64,000 nt of DNA. It comes from Bacilli bacterium. Its GTDB lineage: Bacteria; Bacillota_I; Bacilli_A; RFN20; CAG-449. Shown here in pieces: positions 2,393 to 26,047 of the stretch; positions within the stretch are counted from its first letter, which is position 1, and every line of letters starts with the position of its first letter. The DNA lies in the NCBI GenBank assembly GCA_048359995.1, contig DBGCPK010000005.1, forward strand, positions 56,585 through 120,584, read 5' to 3'. The notes beneath the pieces are model-generated. The model saw only the letters and a list, made by a program, of their open reading frames with translations. It had not been told where the DNA came from and made no database searches. Position numbers and translations under genes: made by a program.

Positions 2393-2968
2393 ATGGAAGA
2401 GCCATATTGGTGGTATGTATTGCATGTGCGCTCTAACAAAGAGCATCGTGTTGTGGAAAGTTTTCAGCAAGCCTTTAACCAAAAAGGACTTGCATACGAA
2501 TTATACACTTTTTGTCTTGAGTCAGAACACTTCTATAAAGACAAGCAATCCCAAACATTAGGGCGAAAATATATTAAAAGGCCATTATTTCCTGGATATG
2601 TTTTTATAGAAACTAATATGCCATCTAAAGAGTTCATAATGACCTTTTTTTATGTGTTTTATGATTCTGCTGATATAATCCGTCTTTTGCGATACGGAGA
2701 TTCGGATGAAATTGCATTAAAAAAAGAAGAGCGGCAACGTTTTGAATTCCTTTTTAAAGGAAAAAGGGCGATTGAACACTCTATTGGTTATATTGAAGGT
2801 GATAAAATCATTATCACAGGCGGAGGACTAATGGGGCTTGAAGGGTATATCCGAAAAATCAATCGACATAACCGCACTGCAGATGTAGAGATAAATATGT
2901 TTAATCAAAGACAAACTATAAAAGTTGCACTTGAAATTGTGTCAAAATCAGGCAATCAAAAAAAATAG
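2393..2968 (+). CDS. NusG paralog (LoaP/UpxY-like specialized transcription antiterminator), NGN + KOW
   Basis: WYVLHVRSNKEHRV and PLFPGYVFIE NGN-domain motifs, and a C-terminal KOW-like GDKIIITGGGLMGLEGYI. GGAGGGG RBS. It is the first gene of the long co-directional cluster. Confidence 0.8.
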   Translation: MEEPYWWYVLHVRSNKEHRVVESFQQAFNQKGLAYELYTFCLESEHFYKDKQSQTLGRKYIKRPLFPGYVFIETNMPSKEFIMTFFYVFYDSADIIRLLRYGDSDEIALKKEERQRFEFLFKGKRAIEHSIGYIEGDKIIITGGGLMGLEGYIRKINRHNRTADVEINMFNQRQTIKVALEIVSKSGNQKK

Positions 2969-3037
2969 TCTTAACAGATTATTTTTTTGCTTTCTTTATG
3001 TAACGAGCGTTCCAAATAGGATTTAAGTACTAATGAT

Positions 3038-3571
3038 ATGAAAGAAGAAATAATAAACGCAAATGAAACTACCTTAAAAATTATTTTTGGTTGCTTAGTT
3101 CGTAACGGAGTAGAAAATACTACAATGCGATCGATATGTAATGCGACAGGCTTGACCGCAAGCAGTTTATATTACCGATTTAAGGACAAGGATGAAATTA
3201 TTTTAGAGGCATCCTGTTATGGGCTTAATTCCGTAACAAAAGAATTGTTTTGGGTTGTAACTGAAAAAATTAATAACTTCCAAGTTTTAATTGCTTTTTT
3301 GAAAAATGTTGATACTAGGAAACAATCTATAAAGCTTATTTATCAAGTTTTAAGTAGCCCTAAGTATGGTGAAAAATTTAGAAAAATGACGCATTCAACA
3401 CCGATGGTAATATATAAGTATACTGGGATGTTGTCAGAGAAACTCAATTGCTCGACAGAAGATTGTTGCTATATGTCGGACTTACAATTGCCGTTATTCG
3501 TGAATATGCAATATGGGAAAACAGGGAAAGCACGAAGCGAAAACTTAAATTTATTTACGACAATTGCTTAG
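3038..3571 (+). CDS. TetR/AcrR-family transcriptional regulator
   Basis: N-terminal HTH TTMRSICNATGLTASSLYYRFKDKDEI, typical of TetR; 177 aa. Confidence 0.7.
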   Translation: MKEEIINANETTLKIIFGCLVRNGVENTTMRSICNATGLTASSLYYRFKDKDEIILEASCYGLNSVTKELFWVVTEKINNFQVLIAFLKNVDTRKQSIKLIYQVLSSPKYGEKFRKMTHSTPMVIYKYTGMLSEKLNCSTEDCCYMSDLQLPLFVNMQYGKTGKARSENLNLFTTIA

Positions 3572-3620
3572 CCGATTGCTGTAAAAATGAAATTAATGAT
3601 TAATTTGGAAGAAACAACAA

Positions 3621-4661
3621 ATGCTTACTGATTATTATTATAATGAATTGTCCGTCCCTGAACAGGGTGCGTATAATAGTATTAGATTTGCTTTAAACAA
3701 TTCAGAGACTGAATGCACTGTAACTGGAATTAGTTCTAGTGAATCTGCTACACTTGTTTGGAAAGCCGTTGTTTTTGATCATCCGGAAATTATTAATTAT
3801 CCTGGACTGTTTTGTCAGCCGGTAGGTAATGGTGAGAATTTTAGGTTCAGATTTCAATATTCCCAGATTGATAGATATGCTTATGAAGAAAAACTAAATC
3901 GGCTAATAAACAAAATTAACAATAAAATGTCTGCTAATGCGTCAGATTATGTTGCTTGCAAAACAATATTTGATGAGTTAGCATCTTTTATTAAATATGA
4001 AGAAAATGTTTTAGAAGAGTATTTGAACCTTGAGCAAGAGAATTCTTCAGAGACAATAGATTTTATGCGAGACCATAGTACTTCATTTTCTCCATACGGA
4101 ATTCTAATGAATTCTAAAGGAGTGTGCCAAGGAATAGCCAAACTTTTTAAAATTATTTGTGACAGATTTGGCGTTCAATGTGCGTGTGTTGAAGCTAAGA
4201 CATTAAATTGCGGAGCTAATTCGGCAAGCAATCACATGTTAAATGTTGTAGAAATAGATGGGGAACGTGCTTTTGTCGATATAGCAAATAGTTTAAAGAT
4301 TGAAAATCTACCCGTTATTAAATATGATTTTTTCCTTATGCCTCAGCGTATTATCAATAAGACCTTTACAATTATTGGTGAGTTTGGATGCCGTAATGAG
4401 TCATTAAACTATTTTGTTAAAAATAATCTCCGTTTTACATCAATAAATGATTTAAGACGTTATCTTTTATCATATACCTATCGCTCAACGAATGGCGAAG
4501 TAAGGTGCCATTACGATGGAAACAAATTTGATGATAAAAAATTGGAAGACTTATTTTTTTACAATATAAACTACCATTGTCAAGATGGGTATTATATGCA
4601 ATTTGCAAGTGTTAAGAACGGATTCTGTACCGGTCTTATTAAATCAGATTCGGAGGTTTAA
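3621..4661 (+). CDS. Transglutaminase-like cysteine protease superfamily protein
   Basis: Cys-His-Asp arrangement: GVCQGIAKLFKIICDRFGV (Cys), NHMLNVVEI (His), AFVDIA (Asp). Confidence 0.55.
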   Translation: MLTDYYYNELSVPEQGAYNSIRFALNNSETECTVTGISSSESATLVWKAVVFDHPEIINYPGLFCQPVGNGENFRFRFQYSQIDRYAYEEKLNRLINKINNKMSANASDYVACKTIFDELASFIKYEENVLEEYLNLEQENSSETIDFMRDHSTSFSPYGILMNSKGVCQGIAKLFKIICDRFGVQCACVEAKTLNCGANSASNHMLNVVEIDGERAFVDIANSLKIENLPVIKYDFFLMPQRIINKTFTIIGEFGCRNESLNYFVKNNLRFTSINDLRRYLLSYTYRSTNGEVRCHYDGNKFDDKKLEDLFFYNINYHCQDGYYMQFASVKNGFCTGLIKSDSEV

Positions 4662-4664: not shown

Positions 4665-6908
4665 ATGGAAGAAAGCAAAAAAATGAAATGGCAAAAGGAT
4701 TTTGATACTTTTTTCCCGATCTATAACTCATTTATCTTTGAAGGGTTCATTGATGATGATCAGCCATATGAAGACGAAAATGGAGAAATTAAATATTGTA
4801 GGCTTTATGACTATTTTGATAAAGTCTACAGCAATCATACCGATCCAACAAAACGTAAACGTGTAATCATCTATGATCCTACAGAATCAGATGATAAACG
4901 GTTTAAGATTTGCGATGATGATTGTATGCAAGAAGAAGTTGTCGATGAATCAGCAGACAATTTTGATGGAAAACTGAAAAAAGTCATGAATTATATGTCA
5001 TCGCAAATGTCGCAACATTTTTGGGATATAGTACATGATGATGATTTGGACATGCTTTTAATAGATCATAAATCATCTGGTCCTTCGTTAGATTTTTCTC
5101 GTATCCATTACGCTGTTACAGAGGGTAGTGGCCGTATTGCTCCATTCGAAATTCTTGATAAATTTAGAGATATTTTTAATAACCTGTTTGGTAATCCGCA
5201 AAATGGTGAACCAAGTGGGTATTTGTTTGTAATTAAAATGACATCACGTCTTTTATCGCGTGATGGTGCGTCCAACGGCTTGAGCGGTGAAGAGTTAATG
5301 ATATTTAGACAGTTGCTTAACATTGCCCAAAGTCTCGATACTGAAAGCGATAACGCCACGCAGCAACATCAAAGTAATAAGATCATCATTCTTGCAAACC
5401 AAGTGCGGGATTTGCCTATGTGGTTTACAGATGAAATTGCAAATCCGTTTATCAAGCTTATCAATGTATCAAGACCTTCTGAAGAAAATAAACTTGATTA
5501 TTTTAATGAAATGCTTGATAGCGGTTGCTTTAGTCCGCAATTTGTAGCTCGCTATAATGAGATTGATAGTGCTAGTAAAGAAAAAGATGCGCAGGCTAAG
5601 CGTAATCCAGTTGAAAAGAAATTTTTGGCGTATACAAACGATTTTAGTATGAAAATGCTAAGACGTTATAGGGCGTTTATTTCTAATAATCCTATAGATG
5701 ATCCGGCTAAATTGGGCTTTTCAATATCCACGTTCCGTGCCGGTGATATGACAAATCCTTGGGATGACGAAGACCGCATAAAGGATATGCTTAATATCAA
5801 ACAAACGGTAAGCAAAAAAATACAAGGTCAAGATTTTGCTTTAGATACTGCGCAAGCCATTTTAACAAGAGCCGCAATTGGACTTGACCGTGCTGAAAAT
5901 CCTAATGCTCCGCGGGTTATCTTATTTCTTGCCGGTCCGACAGGTACAGGTAAGACTGAACTATGTAAACAAATTGCGGAAAGTATTTTTGGCAGTGAAG
6001 ATAGAATTGTAAGATTTGATATGTCCGAGTATGGACAGGAAGAATCAGATCAAAAGCTTTTTGGTGCGCCTCCAGGATATGTTGGTTATGAAGAAGGCGG
6101 AAAGTTAACAAATGCTGTTAAGAAAGAGCCTTTTTCTCTTATCCTTTTCGATGAAATAGAAAAGGCTCATAATTCTATTCTCGATAAGTTTTTACAAATT
6201 CTTGGTGATGGCAGATTAACCGATGGCAAAGGAGAAACTGTTAGATTCACTGATTGCATTATAGTTATCACTTCAAATGCCGGGGTATTCTCGTTTGACG
6301 GAATGCCGCAGGAAGAAATCGACAAACTCATGAATGGCGATACAAAACCTGAAGGCGAAATGAATATGGACAGAGTTGCCCAGCTTGAGGAAGAATTGGC
6401 TGACGCTAATGGCAATATTTCCGAGCAATCATACTCAGAAATTTACGCAAAAGTAAAAGAACATTTAAGATACAATGTAAAGTCTTATTTCCATTGTAAA
6501 TTGAAGAGACCTGAGTTATACGGTCGTATTGAAGATTCTATAGTTTATTACAATTACATAGGAAAAGAATCAGTTGCAAAAATTGTTAAATCCAAAATTT
6601 CCGACGTAATTAAATCTACAAAAGAATCAATGAATGTTAACGATATTATATGCTCTGACGAAGTAAAAGCGGCAATTGCTCTCTATTGCCAAGATTGCAA
6701 AGTAAGAGCCTTAGGTGCGCGTGGTATTATCAAGAGTACCGGTAAATTATTCACTGGTAGCTTATCTAATTTCCTTTCTGATTATGTTCGTGGAGAGAAC
6801 GGAAAAAGTAAGGGCGATTTATCAGGAAAAACTTTAAAATGCACGTGCAACGAAATAATTTCATCGGCCTATGATATAGTTTGGAGTATCAATGATTGTA
6901 GTATTTGA
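4665..6908 (+). CDS. AAA+ ATPase with ClpA/ClpB D2-type domain (C-terminal) and unknown N-terminal region of about 400 aa
   Basis: LAGPTGTGKTELCK Walker A, a GAPPGYVGYEEGG sensor motif, Walker B LILFDEIEKAH, and LQILGDGRLTDGKGETVRFTDCIIVITSN. All are hallmarks of the Clp/Hsp100 D2 module. Confidence 0.8.
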   Translation: MEESKKMKWQKDFDTFFPIYNSFIFEGFIDDDQPYEDENGEIKYCRLYDYFDKVYSNHTDPTKRKRVIIYDPTESDDKRFKICDDDCMQEEVVDESADNFDGKLKKVMNYMSSQMSQHFWDIVHDDDLDMLLIDHKSSGPSLDFSRIHYAVTEGSGRIAPFEILDKFRDIFNNLFGNPQNGEPSGYLFVIKMTSRLLSRDGASNGLSGEELMIFRQLLNIAQSLDTESDNATQQHQSNKIIILANQVRDLPMWFTDEIANPFIKLINVSRPSEENKLDYFNEMLDSGCFSPQFVARYNEIDSASKEKDAQAKRNPVEKKFLAYTNDFSMKMLRRYRAFISNNPIDDPAKLGFSISTFRAGDMTNPWDDEDRIKDMLNIKQTVSKKIQGQDFALDTAQAILTRAAIGLDRAENPNAPRVILFLAGPTGTGKTELCKQIAESIFGSEDRIVRFDMSEYGQEESDQKLFGAPPGYVGYEEGGKLTNAVKKEPFSLILFDEIEKAHNSILDKFLQILGDGRLTDGKGETVRFTDCIIVITSNAGVFSFDGMPQEEIDKLMNGDTKPEGEMNMDRVAQLEEELADANGNISEQSYSEIYAKVKEHLRYNVKSYFHCKLKRPELYGRIEDSIVYYNYIGKESVAKIVKSKISDVIKSTKESMNVNDIICSDEVKAAIALYCQDCKVRALGARGIIKSTGKLFTGSLSNFLSDYVRGENGKSKGDLSGKTLKCTCNEIISSAYDIVWSINDCSI

Positions 6909-7425
6909 TGAACAATTAAAAGAAGCGCTTGAAAACGCCCAAAAGCTAAAACTGGCGGGAGAAGAAGAACTTTCAAAACAAATGTGTTTAAAATGCGTTG
7001 AGAAAGTTGCGTTATATAATGGCATTGATTTGATTTCGCTATTTTATGAGGACAAAGTATATGACGAAATAAAGGATGTGCCAGATGCTTTAAAGTACAT
7101 TTTTATAGCAAAATGCGCAATGAATGCGTATGACTTAATTTACTCAAAAAATCCGGCGAGCGATTCCGCATCTTCGTGGGCCAAGTGTGATAAAAACAAT
7201 AGCAATAGACCGCTTAGAGGTTTTTTTGAATGGTTACAAAGACGAAATCGATCAGTAGAAGAAAGGGATTGCAACCAATTCAAAATTCTGATCAATGCAA
7301 TGGTTGATTCTGACAATATTTATTTTAAAATGTCAGACCGAGTTGCTCAGTTGCCTTTAGTAGATATATTGAGCATGATAGTATCTGGTTCAATTACCAT
7401 TACTTCCGACGGAGAACTAAGATGA
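6892..7425 (+). CDS. Hypothetical protein (177 aa)
   Basis: ORF overlaps the upstream gene by 17 nt and the downstream gene by 4 nt (translational coupling); no recognisable motif. Confidence 0.55.
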   Translation: MIVVFDEQLKEALENAQKLKLAGEEELSKQMCLKCVEKVALYNGIDLISLFYEDKVYDEIKDVPDALKYIFIAKCAMNAYDLIYSKNPASDSASSWAKCDKNNSNRPLRGFFEWLQRRNRSVEERDCNQFKILINAMVDSDNIYFKMSDRVAQLPLVDILSMIVSGSITITSDGELR

Positions 7426-9191
7426 TTAGCGTAGTAAGATGTAGTAATAGAATGTGTATACAACTCCCAAAGGGTGTTACATGCAAGATTGGGGATATAA
7501 TTCCTTGCCCTAAAAGTTGTACATGCTTCAAAAAAGTTGAATCATTTTCCGTGGCGTCGGTATGGCAAATGGATGAAAAAAAATCCAGCAGTACGGCCAA
7601 ATATTCTGATGAGGAAATTAGAGCATATTGGGGGCAAGAGAATACGTCATCAGCTTCTTCTACCGATAGTGATATGCAAAGTTCAAATGTAGGCGTTAAC
7701 TCGTCCAATACTGCTTTGGGTGTAGAGCGACACGATAATAATCAAGTTGTAGCGAATGCCAATGAATTTGTAAGACAAAAGTCTTTCGGCAGATCACAGC
7801 GTTCTCAGTCCAATAGTGTTCCCGAAGCCGATGCAATATTGAGACCGCAAGAAAATTATGAAAAAATTGAGATTGGTGGTATGCAATTTACTGATAAAAT
7901 GACGATACTATCGTCGGAAATATCGCAGCCTCTCAGAAATGCTTTGTGGTTTATTTTCTCGCATTGGGAAACTCGTTCAGTTTTTAAAACAGAAACAGAA
8001 TTACGTGATGATTTTATTTGGTTGATAACATCGACTTCTAAACGCACTTTTAAGAAAAGTGAAATTGATGCAATATTATTAAATGAAGAATATGGACTTT
8101 CAGAAAAGTTCTTTTATTTGTTTTACGATATTATCTATCGCTACGAGCCGCCTAAAGGGTTTTACTGGTGCGATAAAGTTCTCTCACCTGATCCTTTAAG
8201 CTCATATTTTAGAGATAAAAAAGATTTTGTAGTTAAGTATTGTAATGCATACGCACAAGGCGAGCAATTTCGTTTGTTTTACATGGCACATAAAAAGGAA
8301 ATTTTACACTTTTTAGGCAGCGATAATGAAGAAAAATTGTTTGAAGACATGACATTATCTTTAGCTAAAGATGTCGGAGAAATTGTATTGATAGATAAAT
8401 ACAATAATTACATGCCGATAAATATGGGTAAGATTTCTTCGTTTATTATTAACATGCAGCAGCCAACTGAATTAAACAACATGAGAAACATGGTTAATTT
8501 TTTGGAAAAATATCGTGTAACACGACTTGGCGTTGTTCCTAGAGCTATTGAATACCCGTTCGAAAAATCTGTCAGGGATGATTTACAAGAAGATGTCAGT
8601 ATGTATGCAACTCTGCGATTAAACTCTTCTGCAAGCTACGCATCGGAATATGATTGCTTTGTGACACTCTTACATGAATATGTTAAGGTATTTAATCCCA
8701 GTGAAATTAAAATAGGTGAATTAACATTTACCCAAAGCAATTTTTCTCACGAATTAGAAGAAATTGTAAAAAACCTTTGCAAATCTTATTTTGGACAAGT
8801 CGCAGATGATGTGTTTGCAGACTATAAAAGTCGCGCATGGCTTGCGAAAAGCATATATGACAGGAACATTTTATCGACATATGTGTTAGAAAATAAATCC
8901 TACGTCGATAAGCTTATGAAACTAATTTCTAATCCAACATTAGAGCAATATATATCAATGTTCGATGATTGTGTTATTCAGTTGCATTATAGAGATTTAA
9001 CTATTCATGAATATATTGCAGAATTAGTGAAAGAAGATATTTATACGGTGTGTGGAGAATTTAGAGAAGACAATATTATTCATGAATTCTTCAATTACAA
9101 AATAAAAAATTGGTCTAAAACAAATTTGAGTGAACTGTTTAATAAATATCAGCGGCAATATGAAGCATTCATTAAAGGAGACATACTATGA
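7422..9191 (+). CDS. Hypothetical protein (589 aa) with Cys-rich N-terminus and Ser-rich linker
   Basis: ATGA overlap with the upstream gene. The N-terminus CSNRMC..CPKSCTC suggests a small metal-binding motif, followed by a low-complexity S/T-rich linker and a globular region. Confidence 0.6.
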   Translation: MISVVRCSNRMCIQLPKGVTCKIGDIIPCPKSCTCFKKVESFSVASVWQMDEKKSSSTAKYSDEEIRAYWGQENTSSASSTDSDMQSSNVGVNSSNTALGVERHDNNQVVANANEFVRQKSFGRSQRSQSNSVPEADAILRPQENYEKIEIGGMQFTDKMTILSSEISQPLRNALWFIFSHWETRSVFKTETELRDDFIWLITSTSKRTFKKSEIDAILLNEEYGLSEKFFYLFYDIIYRYEPPKGFYWCDKVLSPDPLSSYFRDKKDFVVKYCNAYAQGEQFRLFYMAHKKEILHFLGSDNEEKLFEDMTLSLAKDVGEIVLIDKYNNYMPINMGKISSFIINMQQPTELNNMRNMVNFLEKYRVTRLGVVPRAIEYPFEKSVRDDLQEDVSMYATLRLNSSASYASEYDCFVTLLHEYVKVFNPSEIKIGELTFTQSNFSHELEEIVKNLCKSYFGQVADDVFADYKSRAWLAKSIYDRNILSTYVLENKSYVDKLMKLISNPTLEQYISMFDDCVIQLHYRDLTIHEYIAELVKEDIYTVCGEFREDNIIHEFFNYKIKNWSKTNLSELFNKYQRQYEAFIKGDIL

Positions 9192-17159: not shown

Positions 17160-20100
17160 ATGAACGACAAAATTACTGCAAAGAATGGAATAATTAAGAT
17201 ACTTTCAATTATCGTTGTTGCGATATTAGCAATTGCGGTAACTGTTATTGGCATCTTATTGCTCAATAAAGATTCAAACACTGAAAATGCAAGCTATAGC
17301 ATCATTGTCGATGATGAAATTACAATATATGAGGGAGATACATTTACTTTAGTTCCATATTTGGTAAACAAGGATGGAACGGTAGTTGAATCTCGCTTTG
17401 ATTATTCGGCATCTGATAAGGCTATATCTGTTAATGTTGACGGTGTGATTTCCGTAAACTCAATTCCCGAAAATGATGTCCACGTATCAATTTATGAGCG
17501 CAACACGTCTACAACTGCTGAAGTAAACGTTAATATCGTCGGTAGACTCACTAAAGTCTTGGGCATTACTTTCAGCGATTTAGCTGGAAATAAGATGTTG
17601 GTGTCGGGCACACAGAATTTAAAATTAGGTGAAACTTATATCATTGACGTAGTGACTGAACCACGTAATGTCGAAATTGAGAATTATTGTCTTTTGCAGG
17701 CTCTGAATTCGAGCGGTACTGAAAAGAATGTATTTGAATTTGCATACACCAAAACTAATGTTAGTATGACGGCAGTTGGTCTTGGATCTGGAACATTGCT
17801 GCTCGATATAACAAATGACGATAATCAGTCCATATACGATACTGATTTCGATTTTTCCGTCTCGATGTCTGATGAGAATCTTAGCGAAGAGATACTGAAT
17901 AGTACTAATACAACTTTATTATCAAAAGAAGAGCTTAACAAAATTGAAAAAGTTGAGTTGAGTCAAAATGTTTCAAATTTAGATGGTTTACAAAATTTAA
18001 CATCATTAAAAACGGTTGTATTTACAGCTGATGAGGTAATGAATATTGAGAATATCTCTCAGAACTATTGTTACAGAATTAAAACAAATTTGTTTGAGAA
18101 TTATCTAGATGCGAATAATTGGGCAGATTATTTAAAATGTATAATTCCTTATGAAGAAAGTGCTGATGAACTTTTTATTGTATATCATAATGCAAAGACT
18201 GCAACAGGAGAGGAAAATGTTGTATATGAAAGGTTAGAGAATATTGCAAATTTTCCTACTTATATTTTTGAGGGATATACGAATTTTGGATGGTTAGATG
18301 GAACCGAAACAGAGGTATCTTTATCTCAAGTTAAGGCTTCCGTAAAGAGTAATGGCATACATTTATATGCCGGTTGGAATCCTATATCATATAAAGTTGT
18401 TTATCACATTAGAGATTCTGAGGTCGCTAACAAAGAAGAGATCTTTTATTACGATACAGAATATTTACTTAAAGTGCCTAACGAGATTGATAGTTCAATA
18501 ACTCATACTGGATATAAATTTGCTGGTTGGACACGTAATAGAAATTCAAATACTTTCTCACCTAATGTGCAATTTAGGAATGGCGACGCTATCTCTAATT
18601 TAACTAGCGAAGCTGATGCTATTATAGATTTGTATGATATTTGGGAGCCAATAGAATATACGGTTATTTTTTCATCTGTCGAAGGGATGGAAGAGATTGC
18701 AGACCTTACAGCAAAATATAATACAGCATATACGTTACCGACACCATCTAGACCCGGTTATGCATTTAATTATTGGAAGCTTAATAACGGAGATATATTG
18801 AATGCAGGGATACAAGATCCTAACCTTGATTCCGAATTAAATTTATCAAGTATTGAAGGCGCAGAAATAATTCTTACTCCAGATTTCACTGAAATAACCT
18901 ATACAATAACATTTAGGCTAAATGGAGGTCAAGCCCTTCAGGATCTGTCATTTGTAGATGGATACAGAAAGACATTGTATTATGAGGAAGAATATACTTT
19001 ACCCTATTTAACTAAAGAAGGGTATACGAGATATTACTGGCTTTGTGCTGAAAATGGTAAACAATATAAACTAGATGAGAATAACAAAGGACCAAAACTT
19101 TTACAAGAATTTACTACAGCATGCGAGGTAACATTCTCTGCGGTTTGGACGTCAGCAGAATACAGTATTAATTATGATTGCAATGGTGGTAATATTGCCG
19201 GAGATAGTTATGTGACAGATACAAGATTTTGGGACGATGGTGGTTCCTTGTTAACGCCTCAAAGAATAGGATATACTTTCGTAAAATGGCAAGATATTGA
19301 TCATGAAGATATTAGCTATGTTCCCGAAGATGCCGGATGGACAAGCAACTTAATTAAGTCTGCGCAAGAGGATGGTGCCGAATTCAATTTTAAAGCCGTA
19401 TGGCAAATAAATTACTACGATCTCACTATATCAACTGGTGCGGGAACTAGCTTATCTGTTAAAGTAAACGATCAAACTAAACTTGACGGTACGTATAGTG
19501 TCGCATATAATAGCACAATTACTGTTAGTTATAGTGCAAATACAGGGTATAGTAATGCCGAATGCACTTTCCCTGGCGGTAATATGCCTGCTAATAATCT
19601 AACAATAAAGTCTAGTGCTACAATCAATAAACATAATGTAACAATCATTATTGGCAGTGGCTCATATATGACTGTAAACATAGGCGGGACATCATATTCG
19701 AACAACCAAACAGTTAAAAATGTAGCTTATGGAACTTCAATTTCTGTTTCAAACTATGGTGCTACTAACGGTTATCATGACGGTTGGGCTTCATGCGATT
19801 ATAGCACGATGCCGGATTATGATATTACAGTTAGCTCTGGAGCTACACCAGATTCATGTTTTACAAAGGGAACAATGTTAATGCTAGGAGATGGGACTTC
19901 AGTTGCCGTTGAAAATCTCAGAATCAACGATATAATTTTAGCATTTGATCATTCCACGGGACAGTATGTTGAAAGTCGAATACTTTATACTTATTATGGC
20001 TACGATTATGTACCGTCAATTGAACTATATTTCTCCAATAAAGCAGTTCTCGAATTCTTAAATGTAGGACATGGTCTTTTTGATGCTACGATGAATGAAT

Positions 20101-20543
20101 ATGTTCTCATTAACGCTAACAACGTGCAAGAATATGTAGGACATGAGTTCTTATATACAAGCTTTATTGACGGCAATTTTGTCGCTAATACAGTCAAATT
20201 AGAATCTTACATTGTTTCGAGCAAATTAGTTGAACGTTACGATATTGTAACGGAAAGCACATTAAATCATATTGCCAATGGATTACTTGCATGCTCGGAT
20301 ACATTGGTAGGAATTTGCAATATGTTCAAGTTTGATGATGACTTTACTTATGACATTGTGCAGTTGCAAATCGATATAGAAACATACGGATTATATACGT
20401 ATGATGAATGGAGGAAATATATATCATATGAGGATTTTGTTTCTTTCAATGGTGCATATTTTAAAATTGCCGTAGGAAAGGGATTAATAAGCGTAGATGA
20501 AATATTATCGCTTCTTGATGATTTGTCTGAAAATCGCGCATAG
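17160..20543 (+). CDS. Large surface protein: N-terminal TM anchor, Big_2-like Ig domains, LRR-like segment, multiple Listeria-Bacteroides (Flg_new) repeats, C-terminal Hint domain plus about 80-aa extension
   Basis: Repeated Y.I.YD.NGG...P.R.GYTF.GW units. Hint hallmarks CFTKGTMLMLGDGT, VGHGLF and YDIVTESTLNHIANGLLA. Confidence 0.75.
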   Translation: MNDKITAKNGIIKILSIIVVAILAIAVTVIGILLLNKDSNTENASYSIIVDDEITIYEGDTFTLVPYLVNKDGTVVESRFDYSASDKAISVNVDGVISVNSIPENDVHVSIYERNTSTTAEVNVNIVGRLTKVLGITFSDLAGNKMLVSGTQNLKLGETYIIDVVTEPRNVEIENYCLLQALNSSGTEKNVFEFAYTKTNVSMTAVGLGSGTLLLDITNDDNQSIYDTDFDFSVSMSDENLSEEILNSTNTTLLSKEELNKIEKVELSQNVSNLDGLQNLTSLKTVVFTADEVMNIENISQNYCYRIKTNLFENYLDANNWADYLKCIIPYEESADELFIVYHNAKTATGEENVVYERLENIANFPTYIFEGYTNFGWLDGTETEVSLSQVKASVKSNGIHLYAGWNPISYKVVYHIRDSEVANKEEIFYYDTEYLLKVPNEIDSSITHTGYKFAGWTRNRNSNTFSPNVQFRNGDAISNLTSEADAIIDLYDIWEPIEYTVIFSSVEGMEEIADLTAKYNTAYTLPTPSRPGYAFNYWKLNNGDILNAGIQDPNLDSELNLSSIEGAEIILTPDFTEITYTITFRLNGGQALQDLSFVDGYRKTLYYEEEYTLPYLTKEGYTRYYWLCAENGKQYKLDENNKGPKLLQEFTTACEVTFSAVWTSAEYSINYDCNGGNIAGDSYVTDTRFWDDGGSLLTPQRIGYTFVKWQDIDHEDISYVPEDAGWTSNLIKSAQEDGAEFNFKAVWQINYYDLTISTGAGTSLSVKVNDQTKLDGTYSVAYNSTITVSYSANTGYSNAECTFPGGNMPANNLTIKSSATINKHNVTIIIGSGSYMTVNIGGTSYSNNQTVKNVAYGTSISVSNYGATNGYHDGWASCDYSTMPDYDITVSSGATPDSCFTKGTMLMLGDGTSVAVENLRINDIILAFDHSTGQYVESRILYTYYGYDYVPSIELYFSNKAVLEFLNVGHGLFDATMNEYVLINANNVQEYVGHEFLYTSFIDGNFVANTVKLESYIVSSKLVERYDIVTESTLNHIANGLLACSDTLVGICNMFKFDDDFTYDIVQLQIDIETYGLYTYDEWRKYISYEDFVSFNGAYFKIAVGKGLISVDEILSLLDDLSENRA

Positions 20544-20578: not shown

Positions 20579-21208
20579 ATGGCTAAAATAAAATTAATAA
20601 CAGTAAAGTGCGCTCACTGCGGTAAAGAGAGCGAGCAGACAACAGTTTATAGTAGCAGTTCATTCGGTAGTATGGATTTAGATACTAGACCGCCGATGTC
20701 CGATATGACGTTGCAATATGAAGTGCAGGAGTGTCCTCACTGTCATTTCTGCAATAATACAATTGTAGATGCTACAAATATTCCGGAGTCATTTTCTCCG
20801 GAATATGATGCACTATCAAAGGATAACATCATTTCCCAAACCGCTAAAAAATTCTTGTTGGCAGCAATGCTTCGGGCTCAAATCGGAGACAATCTTAAAG
20901 CCGGGGAGTACTATTTAAAGGCCGCTTGGGTATTTGACGATGAAAATGCTCAAGAAGCCGCTATAGATGCACGTAAAAATGCAGCAATAAAATTCCGTGA
21001 GTATGTTGATGCTACCGACGATGGTAATGTCGCCATTGTGCTAGTAGATGTCCTCAGACGTGCAGGAGATTTTAAAGCTGCAGCAGACCTCATAGACTTA
21101 ATAGGTAATACCGAAGATAAACTTTTAAACAATATTCTTTCGTTTGAAAAATCATTAATAAGTAAAAACGATACGTCCTGCCATAACATGGGAGAAATAG
21201 CTGAATGA
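20579..21208 (+). CDS. Zinc-ribbon (CxxC...CxxC) plus helical-repeat protein
   Basis: CAHCG...CPHCHFC followed by an Ala-rich helical TPR-like region. Candidate partner or immunity-type protein for the upstream gene. Confidence 0.5.
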   Translation: MAKIKLITVKCAHCGKESEQTTVYSSSSFGSMDLDTRPPMSDMTLQYEVQECPHCHFCNNTIVDATNIPESFSPEYDALSKDNIISQTAKKFLLAAMLRAQIGDNLKAGEYYLKAAWVFDDENAQEAAIDARKNAAIKFREYVDATDDGNVAIVLVDVLRRAGDFKAAADLIDLIGNTEDKLLNNILSFEKSLISKNDTSCHNMGEIAE

Positions 21209-22305
21209 TATTCGGGAACAAATACACTAAAACCCGAATATCAACGCCTTATTCGAAATTGTCCGAAATGGAATTATTATCGAGGTTTGAGAGCGATAGC
21301 TGGACTAAATTAAATCAACAGGAAAAAATCGATACTATTCAAGAATTAGAAAATCGATACGCAGTCGAGCAAAAAAGACCAGTATCTAAAATTGAGGCAG
21401 AGGACAACTCTTACAATTATGGTTCCTATGCAAAATCGGAAAATACTATCCGTATTCGTATGGAGGATAGTAAAGCAAATACATCTTATGAGATGCTGGA
21501 TTCTTACTATCATGAGAGCAGACACGCACAACAATATCAAGCAATCGAGTCGGGTAAAGGATTGGATGAGACTACACGGAATGTTTGTCAGACTGAATTA
21601 CGAGGCAATTACGTTGGCGGCGGAAAATATTATGACATGCAGACTTGTGAAATGGATAGCAATAACTATGCGGCAGACAAGATGTTGTCAAACAAAAAAC
21701 TCTTCGAGGGGGATGAAAAGTATAACGAGTATTTAGAACGACTCCAAGAACATTTCGAAGAGGTTAATAAAAGTTGTCATGAAGATGAAGATTTTAGAGC
21801 TCGTCAGCAAATTAATAATGTAGATAAGAGCTTAGCACGCGGTAGTATTACGGAAAAACAAGCAAACCAAATCAAAGAGCAAGTATACAGTGACAACGAC
21901 GATCCCGTATTAGCAGAGAGCTGTGATATTGAGGATAGACTACGAGAAGAAAACTCTGAACGTTTAGAAAATAGAAATTCAGCATCAAACGACTTGACAT
22001 TAGAACAAAAGCGCGAACAATTTTTCGAAACCGAAAGCACTGACGCTGAAACAAACTATAGTCAAAACGATATAAGTAAACGTCAACAGTTTTTTGAGAG
22101 AGATGAATCATCTGATGATCAAGAGCAAGTATCAGACAACCTAGCTAATTCAGAAGAGGACACACATAGCAAGCACGAGCAATTTTTTGAAGACAGCGGA
22201 AGCAATAATGGGCAAGGAGATGGCGAAGGAAATACTGAAGCGTTCGGCGAAAGTGAACATAGTGGCGAGAGTGAGCAATCCTCTCAAACGAATTCAATTA
22301 CATAG
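21205..22305 (+). CDS. HExxH-motif protein (putative zincin-like) with acidic disordered C-terminal tail carrying repeated [KR][HQ]x[EQ]FFE motifs
   Basis: YYHESRHAQQ contains H-E-x-x-H. The tail repeats EQFFETES, RQQFFERDES and HEQFFEDSGS. Confidence 0.6.
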   Translation: MIFGNKYTKTRISTPYSKLSEMELLSRFESDSWTKLNQQEKIDTIQELENRYAVEQKRPVSKIEAEDNSYNYGSYAKSENTIRIRMEDSKANTSYEMLDSYYHESRHAQQYQAIESGKGLDETTRNVCQTELRGNYVGGGKYYDMQTCEMDSNNYAADKMLSNKKLFEGDEKYNEYLERLQEHFEEVNKSCHEDEDFRARQQINNVDKSLARGSITEKQANQIKEQVYSDNDDPVLAESCDIEDRLREENSERLENRNSASNDLTLEQKREQFFETESTDAETNYSQNDISKRQQFFERDESSDDQEQVSDNLANSEEDTHSKHEQFFEDSGSNNGQGDGEGNTEAFGESEHSGESEQSSQTNSIT

Positions 22306-22325: not shown

Positions 22326-22852
22326 ATGAGTCATATTATTGATGGATACGCAAGTGAAAGCGAAATAAGTAGTTTTATTGGTGGAAACCCCGTTGTCGCT
22401 GCCTATGCAAAAAACAAGGATAATCCAAATGAGTATTACTATGAATATTGGTCAAGTATAAAGCATCCAGAGACGGGAGAAAGGCTTCAAGCCGTAAAAG
22501 GGTACTGTAATCCTAATGATTTTAACCAATGCTATTACGCAGAATATCGAGATGCTGAAGGCAATTCTTACCATTATCTCGACTCCAGATATTATCATGA
22601 TCCGGAGTTGTGCGGCAATAAATCAATTTCACAACAGCAATCGGAAGATGCAGCTGAGTGGAAAGAAAATTTTCTACTCGAAAGCACGAAGAATTCTTTG
22701 AGAAATCATCGGGCGAAGACACATCAAAAACAAGTGAAAAACATCAGGCTTTTTTTGAAAAAACAAATGGTTCTAACGAAAGTGTTTCTAGTTCAGAAGA
22801 GTCATCTAATGACAAATCAAATGCTAATGGAAATATTAATAGTCAATCATGA
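22326..22852 (+). pseudogene. Frameshifted paralog-like gene with the same FFE-repeat acidic tail (frameshift near 22645-22665)
   Basis: Frame A (22326-) and frame B (22658-22852) are each open. The FFEK repeat motifs HEEFFEKSSG and HQAFFEKTNG are encoded only in frame B. The switch lies in an A-rich run, GGAAAGAAAATTTT. Confidence 0.5.
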
Positions 22853-23193
22853 TGATTGTTGAGAGAAATTACGCAGACAGAGTTCTCATCTTATTAAGTG
22901 AATTAGTTCATATTTTTCCAGAAGATTATCAAGCGCAACTTCAGCTTCTTGAGCAGCAATTAAATGAACTAAGCTGTGATGAGGATTTGATTATTTTTGT
23001 AATACATTTCCTAAAAAAATATTTACTTAAAAATAGCAACAAGCCCCCAAAAGCAGTTTTTTTCGAAGAGTGCAAAGAGGAAAAAGCCAGTAACATTAAT
23101 TGTGTAAACGTTAAGATTGATGAATTAATTGCGGCGCTGAATTGGTTATTAGACGGGCAAAATCAAACTGAATTTAAAGGAATTATTAGATAG
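22849..23193 (+). CDS. Small hypothetical helical protein (114 aa)
   Basis: ATGA overlap with the upstream gene; acidic/helical composition; no motif. Confidence 0.5.
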   Translation: MMIVERNYADRVLILLSELVHIFPEDYQAQLQLLEQQLNELSCDEDLIIFVIHFLKKYLLKNSNKPPKAVFFEECKEEKASNINCVNVKIDELIAALNWLLDGQNQTEFKGIIR

Positions 23194-23195
23194 CA

Positions 23196-24506
23196 ATGAT
23201 AAAACAGATACTTTCGGGGAATTTATTAGAAAAGAATAGCCCTCCAGTGATAGATGATCCACTTATCTATATTAATGGAACATGTAATGGTTCCCGCGCA
23301 TCGTTTATGCTAAATGAGAGCATTTTGAGTAAACATATGATGCTCATAGGTGGAACTGGGTGTGGCAAAACTAATACTTTTCTCCATTTGGTTAAACAAC
23401 TTAAATCCAGCATGACAGAAGACGATGTGATGATTATTTTTGATACAAAAGGCGATTATCATAGTAAGTTTTTTAATTCTAACAAGGATTACGTTTTGTC
23501 CGCATCATCTCTGTATAAACAAGACGCTTGTACATGGAATATATTTAGCGAAATTTTAGCTGACGGCAATAGAGCAAGCGAAATTGAACCTAATATTGCA
23601 GAAATATCATGGGGACTTTTTAGCGTGAGCATCGAAAAAAATAATAGTAATCCATTTTTCCCTAATGCAGCAAGAGACCTTTTTTCTTCGATTTTAACAT
23701 GTATTGTAAGGTATGCTGAAGGGAGAGAAGACTGGATATCTAAATATTTACATAATGCTTTTTTGAAAACTAAACTTGATAAAATGAATGCTAAAGCAAT
23801 TGGTGAATTGCTGAAGGACTACGATGATCAAGCTGCTGTAATGAGTTACATTGGCAATGGAGAGAATCAACAAGGGTTGGGCGTAATGGCCGAGATGCAG
23901 TCAGTTATCAGGAAAGTATTTGTAGGTGCATTCGCAGAGAAGGGTGACTTCTCCATTAGAAAATTTATTAGAGACAAAGGAGCTAAAACACTTTTTATCG
24001 AATATGACTTGTCGCGGGGAGCCACATTAACTCCAATATACAAGTTACTTATTGACCTGGCATTAAAGGAAGCAATGAGCAGAAAATGCAAAGGTAATGT
24101 GTATTTATTCTGTGACGAGTTTAAACTGTTACCTTACTTACAACATATCGAAGACGCGGTTAACTTTGGGCGTTCTTTAGGTGTTAAGGTTTTTGCAGGA
24201 CTTCAAAGTATAGATCAGCTCTATGAAAATTATGGCGAAGCTAGAGGAAAAAACATTATCGCTGGATTTTCAAGCGTTTTATCTTTCAAGGCCAATGATG
24301 AAGACACACGAACTTTTACCTCTGGATTATACGGTAAAAATTACATATTGGAGCAGTATAGAGTATTGGAAAATGCTTATGCCGAAGATAAAAGATTAGG
24401 CTCTGTTGTTGAAGATTGGGAAATTTGTAGCTTACAAGTTGGTGAAGCAGTTGTTGGGTTGCCTAACACAGCACCATTCAAATTTAAATTCGATTTATAT
24501 AGGTGA
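23196..24506 (+). CDS. VirD4/TraG-family (type IV coupling protein-like) P-loop ATPase, soluble form lacking N-terminal TM segment
   Basis: Walker A LIGGTGCGKTNT, Walker B LFCDEF, NPFFPNAARDLFSSIL (the DPFW..AA..LL motif of T4CPs), and GRSLGVKVFAGLQSIDQLYENYG (the GRS.G.....Q...QL..YG block). Confidence 0.65.
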   Translation: MIKQILSGNLLEKNSPPVIDDPLIYINGTCNGSRASFMLNESILSKHMMLIGGTGCGKTNTFLHLVKQLKSSMTEDDVMIIFDTKGDYHSKFFNSNKDYVLSASSLYKQDACTWNIFSEILADGNRASEIEPNIAEISWGLFSVSIEKNNSNPFFPNAARDLFSSILTCIVRYAEGREDWISKYLHNAFLKTKLDKMNAKAIGELLKDYDDQAAVMSYIGNGENQQGLGVMAEMQSVIRKVFVGAFAEKGDFSIRKFIRDKGAKTLFIEYDLSRGATLTPIYKLLIDLALKEAMSRKCKGNVYLFCDEFKLLPYLQHIEDAVNFGRSLGVKVFAGLQSIDQLYENYGEARGKNIIAGFSSVLSFKANDEDTRTFTSGLYGKNYILEQYRVLENAYAEDKRLGSVVEDWEICSLQVGEAVVGLPNTAPFKFKFDLYR

Positions 24507-26047
24507 TCAGAATGTTAAGAGCGATTTTTGGTTTTTTTGTCGGTCTATTTCGACGCAGTTCAAATCTTAGAAATACTGAACAGCAATTAAATAATATTGA
24601 TGTTCAGAATGAAACAAACAAAAATGTCGTTGAGTATCGGAATAATGCCATAGAAGCATTTGTTCCAAACGGAACTGAAAATATTGTTGTTTCTGGTTCA
24701 AATGAAAGTTTACGTAATAGAGTAAACTGCGCATCTGCTTGGCGTTGCCATGAGGTGGGAAGGGCAGCAGTCATTTTACATTGCAGTAATTATCAGTTAT
24801 CTGAGCTGATCGATGAAACATTTAGCGGCGAGAGGGGCTTTCATAATTTGAATAGTCGTAATCCATATTACGATCCTTTTGTTGGCTTAAACCGTTCGGA
24901 AATTTCACAGATGATTTTGAGTTCATCTGGTAGCAATTATAAAATTGAGCGAATAGGAAATTCGTATATATATGGATTAATCGATTACCTTCAGCTAATT
25001 GGTAGACCTATTTGCGTTGAAACTTTTAATAACTGCTTACGAGATAGAAGCTACGAACAAATTATGGAGCAGGCAGAACGAGGAAATATTTCCGAATTTA
25101 TTGCTAGGCGAATTAATTCAGAATTAGCACAAGGAAAACTTGAAGCTGGAAACATTGAACAATACTTTACGGTATTAAAGCAGCAAACTGGAAATACTCT
25201 AGCTGATGAATCATCCGTCTCTAATGCTATCAGTATTAAAAAAGCTTTAAGACAAAATGAAATCATAGCATTTGATATCGGTGATGCATCCAATTCATTA
25301 TTACTTAATTTGGTTATTCAAGAAATAAGAGATGCAATTTCTGCAGGACTAAGATTTACACTGATTATTGATTCAATTCCAGTTGATTCATCGGAATCTC
25401 TTGGACAGTTGATGAGGAATTTTTCAGGTATGTGCTCGTTTGTTTATTCGTCTCCAGATGCATATACAAGTGCTCAAAGTACAGCAAATATTTTTGACAC
25501 CATTCTTGGACGAGCCAATACCGTATTTGTATTGCAGCATTCATCTACTTCCAGTGGAAGATTTTCTCAGTTTTTAGGTCAATATCAAAAAATAGAAGTT
25601 AATCATACTTTTACAAGCGGAGATACATATGCAACATTTGGGCAAATTCTGCCCGGTTCATCATCTGCAAATATTTACGGAACGCAATTGGTTAATAGAG
25701 CTCGAGTAGAGGAAAACGAAATTTCATCTCAGAGTCCCGAGCACGTATATATTAAAAGAAGTGGAACCAATGAGATAATAAGTGTGAGGTGTACAGGTGG
25801 TAGCGCAAAGACTCATTACGAAACGCCGCAAATAAATATTTCACGCCGTCCTAGAGCAACCAGACGAAGAATGAGTTGGATTGTTTTTATTTTATTGTTC
25901 GTTTTCTGTTGTCCGGCTGCATTTATTTACTCGTTTGTAAAATCGGGCAGAATAGGAAAAATTGTCAGTGCAATATTCTTTTTCTTAGTGCTGGCATTGT
26001 ACATTTGTCAGATTGTTTTAATTGTCAATGGTAGGACGGTTAGTTAA
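24503..26047 (+). CDS. Polytopic membrane protein (514 aa), N-terminal TM and two C-terminal TM helices
   Basis: ATGA overlap with the upstream ATPase gene. Hydrophobic N-terminus AIFGFFVGLF. C-terminal helices WIVFILLFVFCCPAAFIYSF and IVSAIFFFLVLALYICQIVLIV. Confidence 0.6.
   Translation: MIRMLRAIFGFFVGLFRRSSNLRNTEQQLNNIDVQNETNKNVVEYRNNAIEAFVPNGTENIVVSGSNESLRNRVNCASAWRCHEVGRAAVILHCSNYQLSELIDETFSGERGFHNLNSRNPYYDPFVGLNRSEISQMILSSSGSNYKIERIGNSYIYGLIDYLQLIGRPICVETFNNCLRDRSYEQIMEQAERGNISEFIARRINSELAQGKLEAGNIEQYFTVLKQQTGNTLADESSVSNAISIKKALRQNEIIAFDIGDASNSLLLNLVIQEIRDAISAGLRFTLIIDSIPVDSSESLGQLMRNFSGMCSFVYSSPDAYTSAQSTANIFDTILGRANTVFVLQHSSTSSGRFSQFLGQYQKIEVNHTFTSGDTYATFGQILPGSSSANIYGTQLVNRARVEENEISSQSPEHVYIKRSGTNEIISVRCTGGSAKTHYETPQINISRRPRATRRRMSWIVFILLFVFCCPAAFIYSFVKSGRIGKIVSAIFFFLVLALYICQIVLIVNGRTVS

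Follow-up and report, generated by a model that had tools for sequence, protein, structure and literature searches.

A conserved gene cluster around a putative DO-GTPase/GAP1 pair in a Bacilli bacterium and in gut Clostridia

A probable divergent DO-GTPase/GAP1 pair

GTPase-centric conflict systems were described by Kaur, Burroughs, Iyer & Aravind (eLife 2020, PMC7159879) in a study that was computational only. According to this work, the systems are defined by a pair of genes, of which the first encodes a DO-GTPase, i.e. a TRAFAC GTPase with a Walker-B Glu and often with N-terminal Zn-ribbons, and the second, located downstream, encodes GTPase-associated protein 1 (GAP1). In the GAP1-N2 type, GAP1 often carries C-terminal transmembrane (TM) helices, and a rapidly evolving FNIII-repeat protein is also present (PMC7159879). 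The published themes are tubulin, HSP70/GrpE and kinase/PP2C/vWA, and the paper makes no mention of a Clp-type AAA+ protein, an activase-type radical-SAM enzyme or a Hint protein in these systems (PMC7159879). The current study concerns a window of 64,000 nucleotides from a Bacilli bacterium (contig DBGCPK010000005.1), in which 18 open reading frames (ORFs; g1 to g18) on the + strand occupy positions 2393-26047 (23,655 bp). The best explanation found for this cluster is that it represents an undescribed, elaborate theme of the DO-GTPase/GAP1 (GAP1-N2-like) systems, acting in nucleoside triphosphate (NTP)-gated conflict or immunity at the membrane, a reading to which we assign a probability somewhat below one half (about 0.45).

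The junctions between the 18 ORFs ranged from -17 to +69 bp, with overlaps at 8 of 17, in agreement with the initial annotation of this DNA, which had described a co-directional 23.7-kb cluster with many overlapping junctions. The cluster consists of three layers, namely a 10-gene core (g3-g12), an optional 6-gene tail (g13-g18) and a lineage-specific LoaP/TetR head (g1 and g2). Its central pair is formed by the following genes.

g9, 11682..13691, + strand: putative divergent DO-GTPase; TRAFAC GTPase domain at residues 365-669, with Walker-B Glu
g10, 13704..16184, + strand: putative GAP1; GAP1-M found in orthologues; 3-4 C-terminal TM helices (TM segments at 715-808)

The g9 protein is predicted to be composed of a beta-rich N-terminal region (residues 1-270), Zn-ribbons (residues ~280-345 of the model) and the GTPase domain. 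The predicted model had a pLDDT (predicted local distance difference test) of 89.4, and its GTPase domain was closest to YcjX and to Arf, Rag and Rab. The N-terminal region showed a weak match to Ig/FN3 sandwiches in the fold search, and no recurrent domain in a pooled Pfam scan of the family. All 24 sequences compared had the DxxGE motif, which holds the Walker-B Glu, and the CPxCH motif; a second CxxC was present in 14-24 of them. Pfam DO-GTPase2 was matched by 14 of 42 g9 relatives, always below the gathering score (best E 0.0031). When compared by hhalign, g9 aligned to the DO-GTPase of locus L035 (97.4%, E 1.4e-11), with which it shares a C-terminal ELPFxWMLKQFG motif. The L035 protein, from Lachnoclostridium sp. 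An14, passes the Pfam DO-GTPase2 cut-off (30.8 bits vs 27).

For g10, Pfam GAP1-M was matched by 13 of 20 orthologues (best E 7.8e-6). The protein aligned by hhalign to the GAP1 of loci L040 and L041 (94.3%, E 1e-7), GAP1-M mapping to residues ~125-215 of g10, and the L040 GAP1 itself passes the GAP1-M cut-off (32.3 bits vs 24). Residues 1-185 of g10 also aligned, with a probability that depended on the alignment used, to the proteins found in the GAP1 position of tubulin-theme loci (93.5%, E 2.3e-7, with 11 sequences), which we infer from PMC7159879 to be GAP1-N2. No Pfam match to GAP1-N2 was obtained in g10, and when PDB sequences were searched with profiles of the g9 and g10 families, the only matches were P-loop and coiled-coil noise. 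Considering these comparisons together, g9 and g10 probably form a divergent DO-GTPase/GAP1 pair.

The tubulin-theme loci used in these comparisons are a group of Lachnospiraceae DO-GTPase loci (L026-L039) that were found as distant matches to the GTPase domain, some of them from cultured isolates. The L035 locus (68-18508) encodes Tubulin_2, a weak baeRF5 match, DO-GTPase2, a GAP1-position protein, vWA and, at its end, an FtsK-family ATPase; judged by these predicted domains, it belongs to the tubulin theme that was published for GTPase-centric systems of firmicutes. When eight core families (g12 excluded) were compared profile to profile with those of the tubulin-theme loci, GAP1 was the only shared family; the link between the GTPases comes from the separate hhalign comparison with the L035 protein. 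From these profile comparisons, only the GTPase and GAP1 appear to be common to the cluster and the tubulin-theme loci, in line with the published view that a constant pair is combined with themes that differ between lineages. Such Lachnospiraceae loci could be tractable models for the GTPase/GAP1 pair.

The cluster resembles GAP1-N2-type systems in its Walker-B-Glu TRAFAC GTPase with N-terminal Zn-ribbons, in a GAP1 with C-terminal TM helices encoded immediately downstream, in a rapidly evolving and partly extracellular repeat protein, in membrane proximity, and in lineage-specific extra genes that include an FtsK/HerA-clade ATPase, as in L035. It differs from them in that Flg_new/Hint and GLUG-type surface proteins replace the FNIII-repeat protein, the three themes are absent, and a Clp-D2 unfoldase, a transglutaminase-like peptidase, an activase-type radical-SAM enzyme and three orphan proteins (g5-g7) are added. 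Moreover, there is a single GTPase with an extra beta-rich N-terminal region of 270 amino acids (aa), GAP1-C was undetected, and the hosts are unicellular gut Clostridia.

The initial annotation had regarded the cluster as an uncharacterised multi-enzyme plus surface system that maps onto no described one. The first part stands, since the genes are co-inherited and no secretion, biosynthetic or conjugation system matching the cluster as a whole was found; the second also holds for the cluster as a whole, but not for g9 and g10, which probably correspond to the DO-GTPase/GAP1 pair. In PADLOC-DB v2, no described system was matched with several components, and there were only generic ATPase and radical-SAM matches. 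The PADLOC matches among the products were PDC-M37B, DolB, mad8, HerA and a weak pVip, the AAA+ and VirD4-like proteins matching the candidate-defence ATPases PDC-M37B, DolB and mad8. The literature searched contained no description of this gene combination and no experiment on DO-GTPase/GAP1 systems, and the DO-GTPase was essentially confined to a single paper.

The conserved ten-gene core

The cytoplasmic part of the core is encoded upstream of the pair.

g3, 3621..4661, + strand: cytoplasmic transglutaminase-like cysteine peptidase (EDR1/CTR1 peptidase-like, E 5.7e-6; MAG6410 transglutaminase-related, E 8.5e-13)
g4, 4665..6908, + strand: single-ring Clp/Hsp100 D2-type AAA+ unfoldase (AAA_2, E 2.4e-42)
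g5, 6892..7425, + strand: small orphan protein, 111-210 aa in relatives, position conserved in 19 loci
g6, 7422..9191, + strand: Zn-ribbon head (C7, C29, P30 and C33 conserved), disordered linker and orphan body of ~400 aa
g7, 9188..11092, + strand: orphan coiled-coil protein with an invariant N-terminal MSSIDK and a DRYGY motif
g8, 11092..11685, + strand: radical-SAM enzyme of the NrdG/PFL-activase type (Fer4_12, E 8e-31; PFL-AE, E 4e-11)

Homologues of g9 formed 83 clusters among 5.8 billion proteins, all unannotated, and those with named sources were all from metagenome-assembled genomes of Clostridia. Neighbourhoods were examined for homologues with 90% to 29% identity (6 look-ups and 33 genome loci). 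Wherever the contig has room, tblastn and blastp matrices showed the order g3-g12, in more than 20 loci altogether, and this synteny persisted down to ~29-32% GTPase identity. The named hosts included Candidatus Coproplasma, Christensenella/Christensenellaceae, Candidatus Ornithoclostridium, Candidatus Scatosoma and an Oscillospiraceae bacterium, and the sources, according to record names, included goat, rabbit, chicken and buffalo gut, among others. The hosts, of the Christensenellales type, are uncultured although abundant gut Clostridia, and very little is known of their surface and phage biology.

The genes flanking the core vary between loci. Because the gene order is conserved in more than 20 loci while the flanks differ, the 10-gene core is a co-inherited unit and not a mosaic. 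The initial annotation had spoken of an 18-gene cluster led by a NusG paralogue, and had named a lack of co-occurrence elsewhere as the sign of a chance mosaic. The former description applies to the window and to the lineage of its 90%-identical relative L005, the conserved unit elsewhere being the 10-gene core, and the chance mosaic was not borne out, since more than 20 independent loci have g3-g12 arranged as they are here. The most conserved core gene was g4 (mean 64% identity) and the least conserved was g12 (0.43 bits per residue), and the catalytic motifs of every enzyme were conserved among the orthologues.

These data also bear on the proposal that the cluster is what remains of a decayed conjugative or integrative element, or that its genes came together by chance and do not act jointly. 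Such an origin might be suggested by the VirD4-like gene in the tail, and by the position of the cluster in a low-GC (guanine plus cytosine) island between a recombinase and an IS30 remnant. However, gene order was kept across deep divergence with the catalytic motifs intact, flanking genes differ from locus to locus, and no relaxase or mating-pair genes were found. In addition, no g9 homologue turned up among 72,556 plasmids and 50,697 phages, or on viral contigs. We regard this explanation as hardly credible; both the conjugative-element remnant and the chance mosaic are effectively refuted by the synteny data. The range of 29-90% identity between loci likewise argues against a single element that spread recently.

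Reduced and rearranged variants of the core were also found. In L018 (10001-16897), a trio of DO-GTPase, GAP1 and an 834-aa Flg_new protein stands alone, and the irreducible unit of the system is this trio (g9, g10 and g12), around which the cytoplasmic set g3-g8 has been recruited, with g11 as a second conserved surface protein. The neighbours of the L018 trio are unrelated genes, with a GH2 glycosidase upstream. The reduced system of L013 comprises g5, g6, the GTPase, GAP1 and the Flg_new protein. Three genes (g7, g8 and g11) were jointly absent from L013 and L018, and in L040 and L041 g3 is positioned after g12.

The domain calls made in the initial annotation for the cytoplasmic enzymes (a transglutaminase-like protein for g3, a ClpB-D2-type AAA+ ATPase for g4, an NrdG-like radical-SAM activase for g8 and a Zn-ribbon GTPase for g9) were all upheld, the first three by the profile matches listed above and the last by the predicted model and fold search. 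Its statement that four large proteins have no recognisable domains was correct in part only, since two of them could be assigned, g10 to GAP1 and g18 in the tail to a degenerate TrwB-fold paralogue.

In the g3 protein, the product of the first core gene, the catalytic triad was conserved among 21 orthologues (Cys in 20/21, His and Asp each in 21/21). The g4 protein aligned to the D2 modules of ClpE, ClpC and ClpB through residues 369-660 alone (PDB, E ~1e-50), and its Walker A, Walker B, GYVG pore loop and sensor-1 were present in 21/21 sequences. Like ClpB and ClpC it has a D2 AAA+ module, but it lacks their N-domain, D1 ring and middle domain; residues 1-370 had no recurrent Pfam match among 18 orthologues and form an orphan region. 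No Pfam, NCBIfam or PADLOC match was obtained for g5, and pooled Pfam scans of the g5, g6, g7 and g11 families revealed no recurrent domain.

The g6 family is small (76 representatives among 1.84e9 proteins) and had no PDB relative by profile search. In the L013 orthologue (840-3224), a TIR_2 domain (E 2.5e-12) replaces the Zn-ribbon head, and the P0155 orthologue has a TIR-like start by sequence reading only. This apparently swappable head, which includes a classic immune effector domain, is the strongest functional clue in the cluster and favours a role in conflict, with g6 as a candidate effector or adaptor subunit.

The MSSIDK start of g7 was invariant in 22/22 orthologues, which share 21-62% identity overall, and DRYGY[LI] was conserved at residues 42-47. 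The PDB profile search with g7 gave coiled-coil noise only. In g8, the GPGxR, WVNGC, CX3CX2C and SGGEP motifs were each present in 22/22 sequences, a set that we take to be the signature of glycyl-radical-enzyme activases, with their CX3CX2C cluster, upstream GxGxR and SAM-binding GGE. The match of g8 to NrdG (TIGR02491, E 1e-27, 97 bits) was below the equivalog cut-off of 126, and a single-sequence search against the PDB gave nothing. Searching the literature for the activase motif also gave nothing.

As in the NrdD/NrdG and PflB/PflA pairs, the activase-type gene (with Fer4_12, CX3CX2C and an upstream GxGxR) overlaps the end of its neighbour, g7, and the two are present or absent together. 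Unlike these pairs, the cluster is without a canonical glycyl-radical enzyme, and g8 remains below the NrdG cut-off. A regular-expression search for the canonical glycyl-radical loop (R-[IVT]-x-G-[YFW] or RVxG[YF]) found none in the 18 products; the DRYGY[LI] motif of g7 has a loose resemblance to this loop, but is located near the N-terminus. Because g7 and g8 overlap and are lost together in reduced variants, g7 would be the best candidate for the substrate of g8. An activase-type radical-SAM enzyme without a canonical glycyl-radical partner would be new enzymology.

Surface proteins and possible functions

Two core genes downstream of GAP1 encode proteins with N-terminal membrane anchors, one of them with Hint, as the initial annotation had recognised.

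g11, 16202..17155, + strand: membrane-anchored extracellular protein with GLUG-like beta-helix repeats (TM segment 7-35)
g12, 17160..20543, + strand: membrane-anchored extracellular Flg_new-repeat protein (Flg_new, E 1e-14) with a weak C-terminal Hint match (TM 5-39)

The g11 protein contains a FAGTFDGRGHTI cap and two GGIxxxNYGTVxxC repeats, and two members of its family had weak Pectate_lyase_5 matches. The g12 protein is the fastest-evolving and most length-variable component of the core, being 582-1785 aa long in the compared loci. The L006 orthologue (14233-20788) is a giant of 4421 aa, also with Flg_new repeats, and its gene extends past the end of the locus. A single-sequence search with g12 against the PDB gave nothing.

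The Hint and post-Hint region of g12, about 230 aa at the extreme C-terminus, was found in at least 10 distinct loci with 31-89% identity. Hint domains are common in polymorphic toxins. The conservation of this C-terminal module argues against its being a toxin cassette, and the possibility of a polymorphic toxin locus was rejected, as the post-Hint region is conserved and no variable C-terminal cassette is present. In L023 (15244-19179) and L024 (8444-12364), the C-terminus of g12, as read from an alignment, is a g11-like beta-helix of GLUG type (RRFAGVFDGGGHTI) followed by a TM segment, with no Hint module, which suggests that domains have been shuffled between g11 and g12.

Several features of the cluster are of the kind expected of conflict systems, i.e. 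the TIR head on g6, the hypervariability of g12, the rarity and patchy occurrence of the g9, g6 and g18 families (83, 76 and 34 clusters), and the low-GC island with its recombinase and IS30 remnant. The g12 protein, with its hypervariable Flg_new repeats, holds a position analogous to that of the FNIII-repeat protein. A scheme for a DO-GTPase/GAP1 conflict system can be drawn from the observed family membership of the pair, the co-inheritance, the membrane topology, the intact catalytic motifs, the TIR head variant and the linkage of the tail. In this scheme, the fast-evolving extracellular g12, together with g11, would act as a surface sensor that detects phage adsorption, contact with foreign cells or envelope damage. 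The membrane domain of GAP1 would relay the signal to its cytoplasmic domains and to the GTPase switch, where GTP-dependent assembly would set a threshold. Above this threshold, the unfoldase and the peptidase may process or release effector subunits (the head of g6, and g7 modified by g8), and the cell might then stop growing, lose its NAD+ (in the TIR variants) or remodel its envelope.

A number of observations weigh against assigning the cluster to these systems, or against a conflict function. The g9 and g10 proteins of the window itself had no significant Pfam match, their membership coming through orthologues and profile comparisons. The alignment of g10 residues 1-185 to the tubulin-theme proteins dropped to only 44.6% (E 2.3e-4) when 9 sequences were used, and GAP1-C was not found in 20 g10 orthologues at E up to 1, so that this region may be too divergent or may have been replaced. 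Neither FNIII repeats nor domains of the tubulin, HSP70/GrpE and kinase/PP2C/vWA themes were matched in any of the 18 products. GAP1-N2 systems are biased to multicellular bacteria (PMC7159879), and the hosts found here are not multicellular.

Further points concern function. The supposed effectors, except for the head of g6, are conserved and not variable, which is atypical for conflict systems. In about 8 genomic contexts, no restriction-modification, CRISPR or Abi genes were present, and the neighbours were housekeeping or envelope-polysaccharide genes (Wzy_C, glycosyltransferases, NeuB). The label of conflict system is itself a prediction for the whole class. Moreover, sensing, signalling and effector action are all steps that we infer, from the nature and direction of the signal to what g3, g4 and g8 act upon, how the FF motifs of g14 in the tail are used and what becomes of the cell.

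Because the function of the class is only predicted, the components are conserved and the contexts are not defence islands, the main rival explanation is that the cluster encodes a phase-variable apparatus that builds or displays a surface structure. In this case, the adhesin-like g12 and g11 would be the products, the Hint module would attach or release g12, and GAP1 with its TM helices, the GTPase, the unfoldase, the peptidase and the TrwB-like motor would serve as a machine for export, quality control and anchoring, regulated by LoaP and an invertible promoter in the manner of capsule loci. The presence of two conserved membrane-anchored extracellular proteins would fit such a role, as would a Hint module that is conserved and not cassette-like, the conservation of the components in general, the envelope-polysaccharide genes beside L004, L040 and L041, and the absence of a defence-island context in the loci examined. 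The LoaP head, the leader flanked by inverted repeats and the serine recombinase also resemble the regulation of phase-variable surface loci, such as the UpxY loci of Bacteroides.

On the other hand, the anchors of g11 and g12 are ordinary and Sec-compatible, and a special exporter would be unneeded. The L018 trio exists without the unfoldase, peptidase, radical-SAM enzyme and motor, and the GTPase/GAP1 pair also occurs with other partners (tubulin, vWA, FtsK). The TIR head on g6 in some relatives fits poorly with biogenesis of a structure, and LoaP and the switch are confined to one lineage. A surface apparatus is a possible explanation that we hold to be doubtful. The envelope genes mentioned were glycosyltransferases, UDP-glucose dehydrogenases, NeuB and Wzy_C, which adjoin the systems in L040 (11561-21527), L041 (13865-21515) and L004 (1-1031).

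The conflict reading can be extended to an "outside-in" surveillance machine of a kind undescribed in bacteria. Hypervariable, Hint-processed g12 would signal through GAP1 and the GTPase to release an effector complex in the cytoplasm, this complex would be armed by a glycyl-radical-type modification of g7 and remodelled by the Clp-like protein and the peptidase, and an optional TrwB-like motor would deploy a zincin through its repeated FF motifs, the whole being phase-variable in this lineage. In this complete form the proposal is unlikely to be correct. The DO-GTPase/GAP1 systems are a large, little-studied predicted class. The variant adds to it an unusually rich set of conserved enzymes open to testing, comprising the GTPase, unfoldase, Cys peptidase, radical-SAM enzyme and TrwB-like motor, with a clear predicted topology of extracellular, membrane and cytoplasmic parts. 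It could reveal how the GTPase/GAP1 pair works, and whether bacteria sense invaders at the surface and signal inward.

Regulatory head, optional tail and flanking genes

The two genes at the start of the cluster are preceded by a divergent recombinase gene and a repeat-flanked leader.

Serine recombinase, 1395..2054, - strand: small, invertase/resolvase type (phmmer against PDB, E 2.3e-30, Tn552 Bin3/Sin invertase)
Candidate invertible promoter switch, 2103..2231, no strand: 26-nucleotide (nt) inverted-repeat arms (2103-2128 and 2206-2231) around 77 bp
g1, 2393..2968, + strand: LoaP-family NusG paralogue, a processive antiterminator (NF033641, 132.5 bits vs cut-off 125; Pfam NusG, E 6e-12)
g2, 3038..3571, + strand: TetR-family regulator (TetR_N, E 8e-9)

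Both regulators had been named in the initial annotation (a LoaP/UpxY-like antiterminator and a TetR regulator), and both names hold, the first in its LoaP form. Among the loci compared, g1 and g2 were present only in the window and in L005. The candidate switch lies in the leader 5' of LoaP, between it and the divergently transcribed recombinase gene. Its arms are 88% complementary, with a 17-nt core that is perfect in both arms and unique within the window (0 matches expected by chance), and promoter-like matches within the 77-bp segment were weak and on both strands. From its layout, this segment has the geometry of an invertible promoter and is a candidate for one. In the phmmer search of the PDB the recombinase also matched DNA invertases and gamma-delta resolvase. 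It may be the partner of the switch; its membership in the system is uncertain. The L005 contig starts inside the right arm of the repeat, and the switch had 0 matches in two metagenome scans.

Bacteroides-type phase-variable surface loci have an invertible promoter, a serine recombinase and the NusG paralogue UpxY. The locus described here is similar in having a recombinase, a leader flanked by inverted repeats, a NusG paralogue as first gene and a very long operon. It differs in that the host is a Firmicute, the paralogue is LoaP and not UpxY, the cargo contains no polysaccharide pathway and inversion is only a candidate. In this lineage, expression would be driven via the LoaP antiterminator, and may be phase-variable via the promoter segment between the inverted repeats, beside the serine recombinase.

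Transcription of the cluster as one mRNA is plausible from the gene arrangement. Scans for promoters and terminators gave no more matches than shuffled sequence did; among the terminator candidates, likewise not above the shuffled level, was a hairpin at 2346-2368. The Rfam search of the window gave 0 matches.

The tail is made up of six genes.

g13, 20579..21208, + strand: DUF2225 protein with Zn-ribbon and helical domain (DUF2225, E 1.8e-6; CxxC at residues 11 and 52)
g14, 21205..22305, + strand: zincin-like protein with HExxH, whose polar, disordered tail holds three short x-F-[FL]-x motifs
g15, 22326..22862, + strand: small orphan protein with no domain match; orthologues in L005, L010 and L040
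g16, 22849..23193, + strand: small orphan protein; orthologues in L005, L010, L040 and L041
g17, 23196..24506, + strand: soluble VirD4/TrwB-type ATPase of the FtsK/HerA clade (TrwB_AAD_bind, E 8e-41; T4SS-DNA_transf, E 3e-22)
g18, 24503..26047, + strand: degenerate TrwB-fold paralogue (AlphaFold pLDDT 85) with two C-terminal TM helices (456-513)

The tail as a whole recurred in L005 and L010 and in part in L014 and L015, in which the locus stops within it, and was absent from most loci; its first gene, g13, was found in L005, L010, L014, L015 and L041. In L040 and L041, both reached by look-ups anchored on distant g18 homologues, the tail lies directly downstream of a GAP1, Flg_new and transglutaminase-like arrangement. 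The tail is thus optional, yet specifically tied to these systems. As g18 had 34 homologue clusters against the 83 of g9, very roughly 40% of systems may carry it. For five of the g18 clusters, the length given for the longest contig was also found among the g9 clusters.

The g14 protein had no Pfam match, and its HExxH and repeated FF/FL motifs were kept in 5 lineages despite divergence of the surrounding tail. The initial annotation had reported HExxH proteins with repeated C-terminal motifs, in the plural; g14 has both features, and g15 has neither. Its VirD4-like ATPase with a membrane partner was recovered as g17 and g18. In g17, which was 64-65% identical to its L040 and L041 orthologues, Walker A is intact (GGTGCGKT) and there is no TM segment. 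The g18 model matched TrwB in Foldseek (1e9s, E 1.2e-11, probability 1.0), and also Cag-beta, DotL, VirB4 and HerA, and its sequence has no GxxxxGK[ST] motif, i.e. no Walker A. Judging from these models, g17 and g18 would form a membrane-anchored motor with one active and one degenerate subunit, g18 being the anchor. This motor would dock the FF motifs of g14 and translocate or deploy it.

If g17/g18 were an exporter of g14, recognising its FF motifs in the manner of a coupling protein, the cluster could serve interbacterial antagonism or effector delivery, with g14 or the C-terminus of g12 as toxins. The conservation in 5 lineages of the g14 HExxH and docking-like C-terminal motifs would agree with this, as would the TrwB fold and TM helices of g18, a g17 that is predicted to be an active ATPase, the frequency of Hint domains in polymorphic toxins and the potential of g12 to mediate cell contact. 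However, no channel, VirB4, relaxase or WXG/LXG components were found among the products, the post-Hint region is conserved and not polymorphic, and no obvious variable toxin/immunity pairs were seen. Moreover, most core loci have no tail, which rules out antagonism as the function of the core, and this explanation is quite improbable.

Compared with the coupling proteins TrwB, VirD4 and TraD, g17 matches TrwB_AAD_bind and T4SS-DNA_transf and g18 has the TrwB fold. In contrast to them, g17 is without a TM segment, the anchor is a paralogue that lacks Walker A and has its TM helices at the C-terminus and not at the N-terminus, the locus is not on plasmids, and relaxase, VirB4, channel and mating-pair genes were found neither among the 18 products nor in the related loci. 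A coupling-protein-like motor outside conjugation would be new. The closest plasmid homologues of g17 (35-37% identity) were soluble TrwB-like ATPases on non-mobilizable megaplasmids, adjoining Zn-ribbon and small hypothetical proteins and no conjugation locus, e.g. in L042 (Paenibacillus sp. 37 pART37, 7998-11411).

There is also a resemblance to SIR2-HerA/Nezha and DUF4297-HerA, in which a hexameric ATPase of the FtsK/HerA clade is likewise found with effectors in a candidate conflict locus, and g18 matches HerA structures by fold. Unlike these defence systems, the ATPase here is of the TrwB branch, is membrane-anchored and has a pseudo-ATPase partner, and the other partners are DUF2225 and zincin-like proteins.

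The GC content of the cluster was 33-38%, compared with 42-48% in the flanks. Because its GC is lower than that of the flanks, and from the gene content of these, the cluster is a low-GC island within the chromosome. The upstream flank contains a Dus-like gene as well as the divergent serine recombinase. At the 3' edge the following feature was found.

IS30-family transposase remnant, 26707..27180, - strand: 157 aa, 37% identity by tblastn to annotated IS30 transposases

This remnant lies in a spacer (26048-28000) with 29% GC; it marks the 3' edge of the island and is a boundary marker outside the system. From a reading of the translations, the genes beyond the spacer are presumably the housekeeping genes for LysRS, HtpG, LacI, GalT and GalK. 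Just beyond the island, the translation of an ORF at 28004-29026 starts with an XRE-type helix-turn-helix, which is followed by many TM helices.

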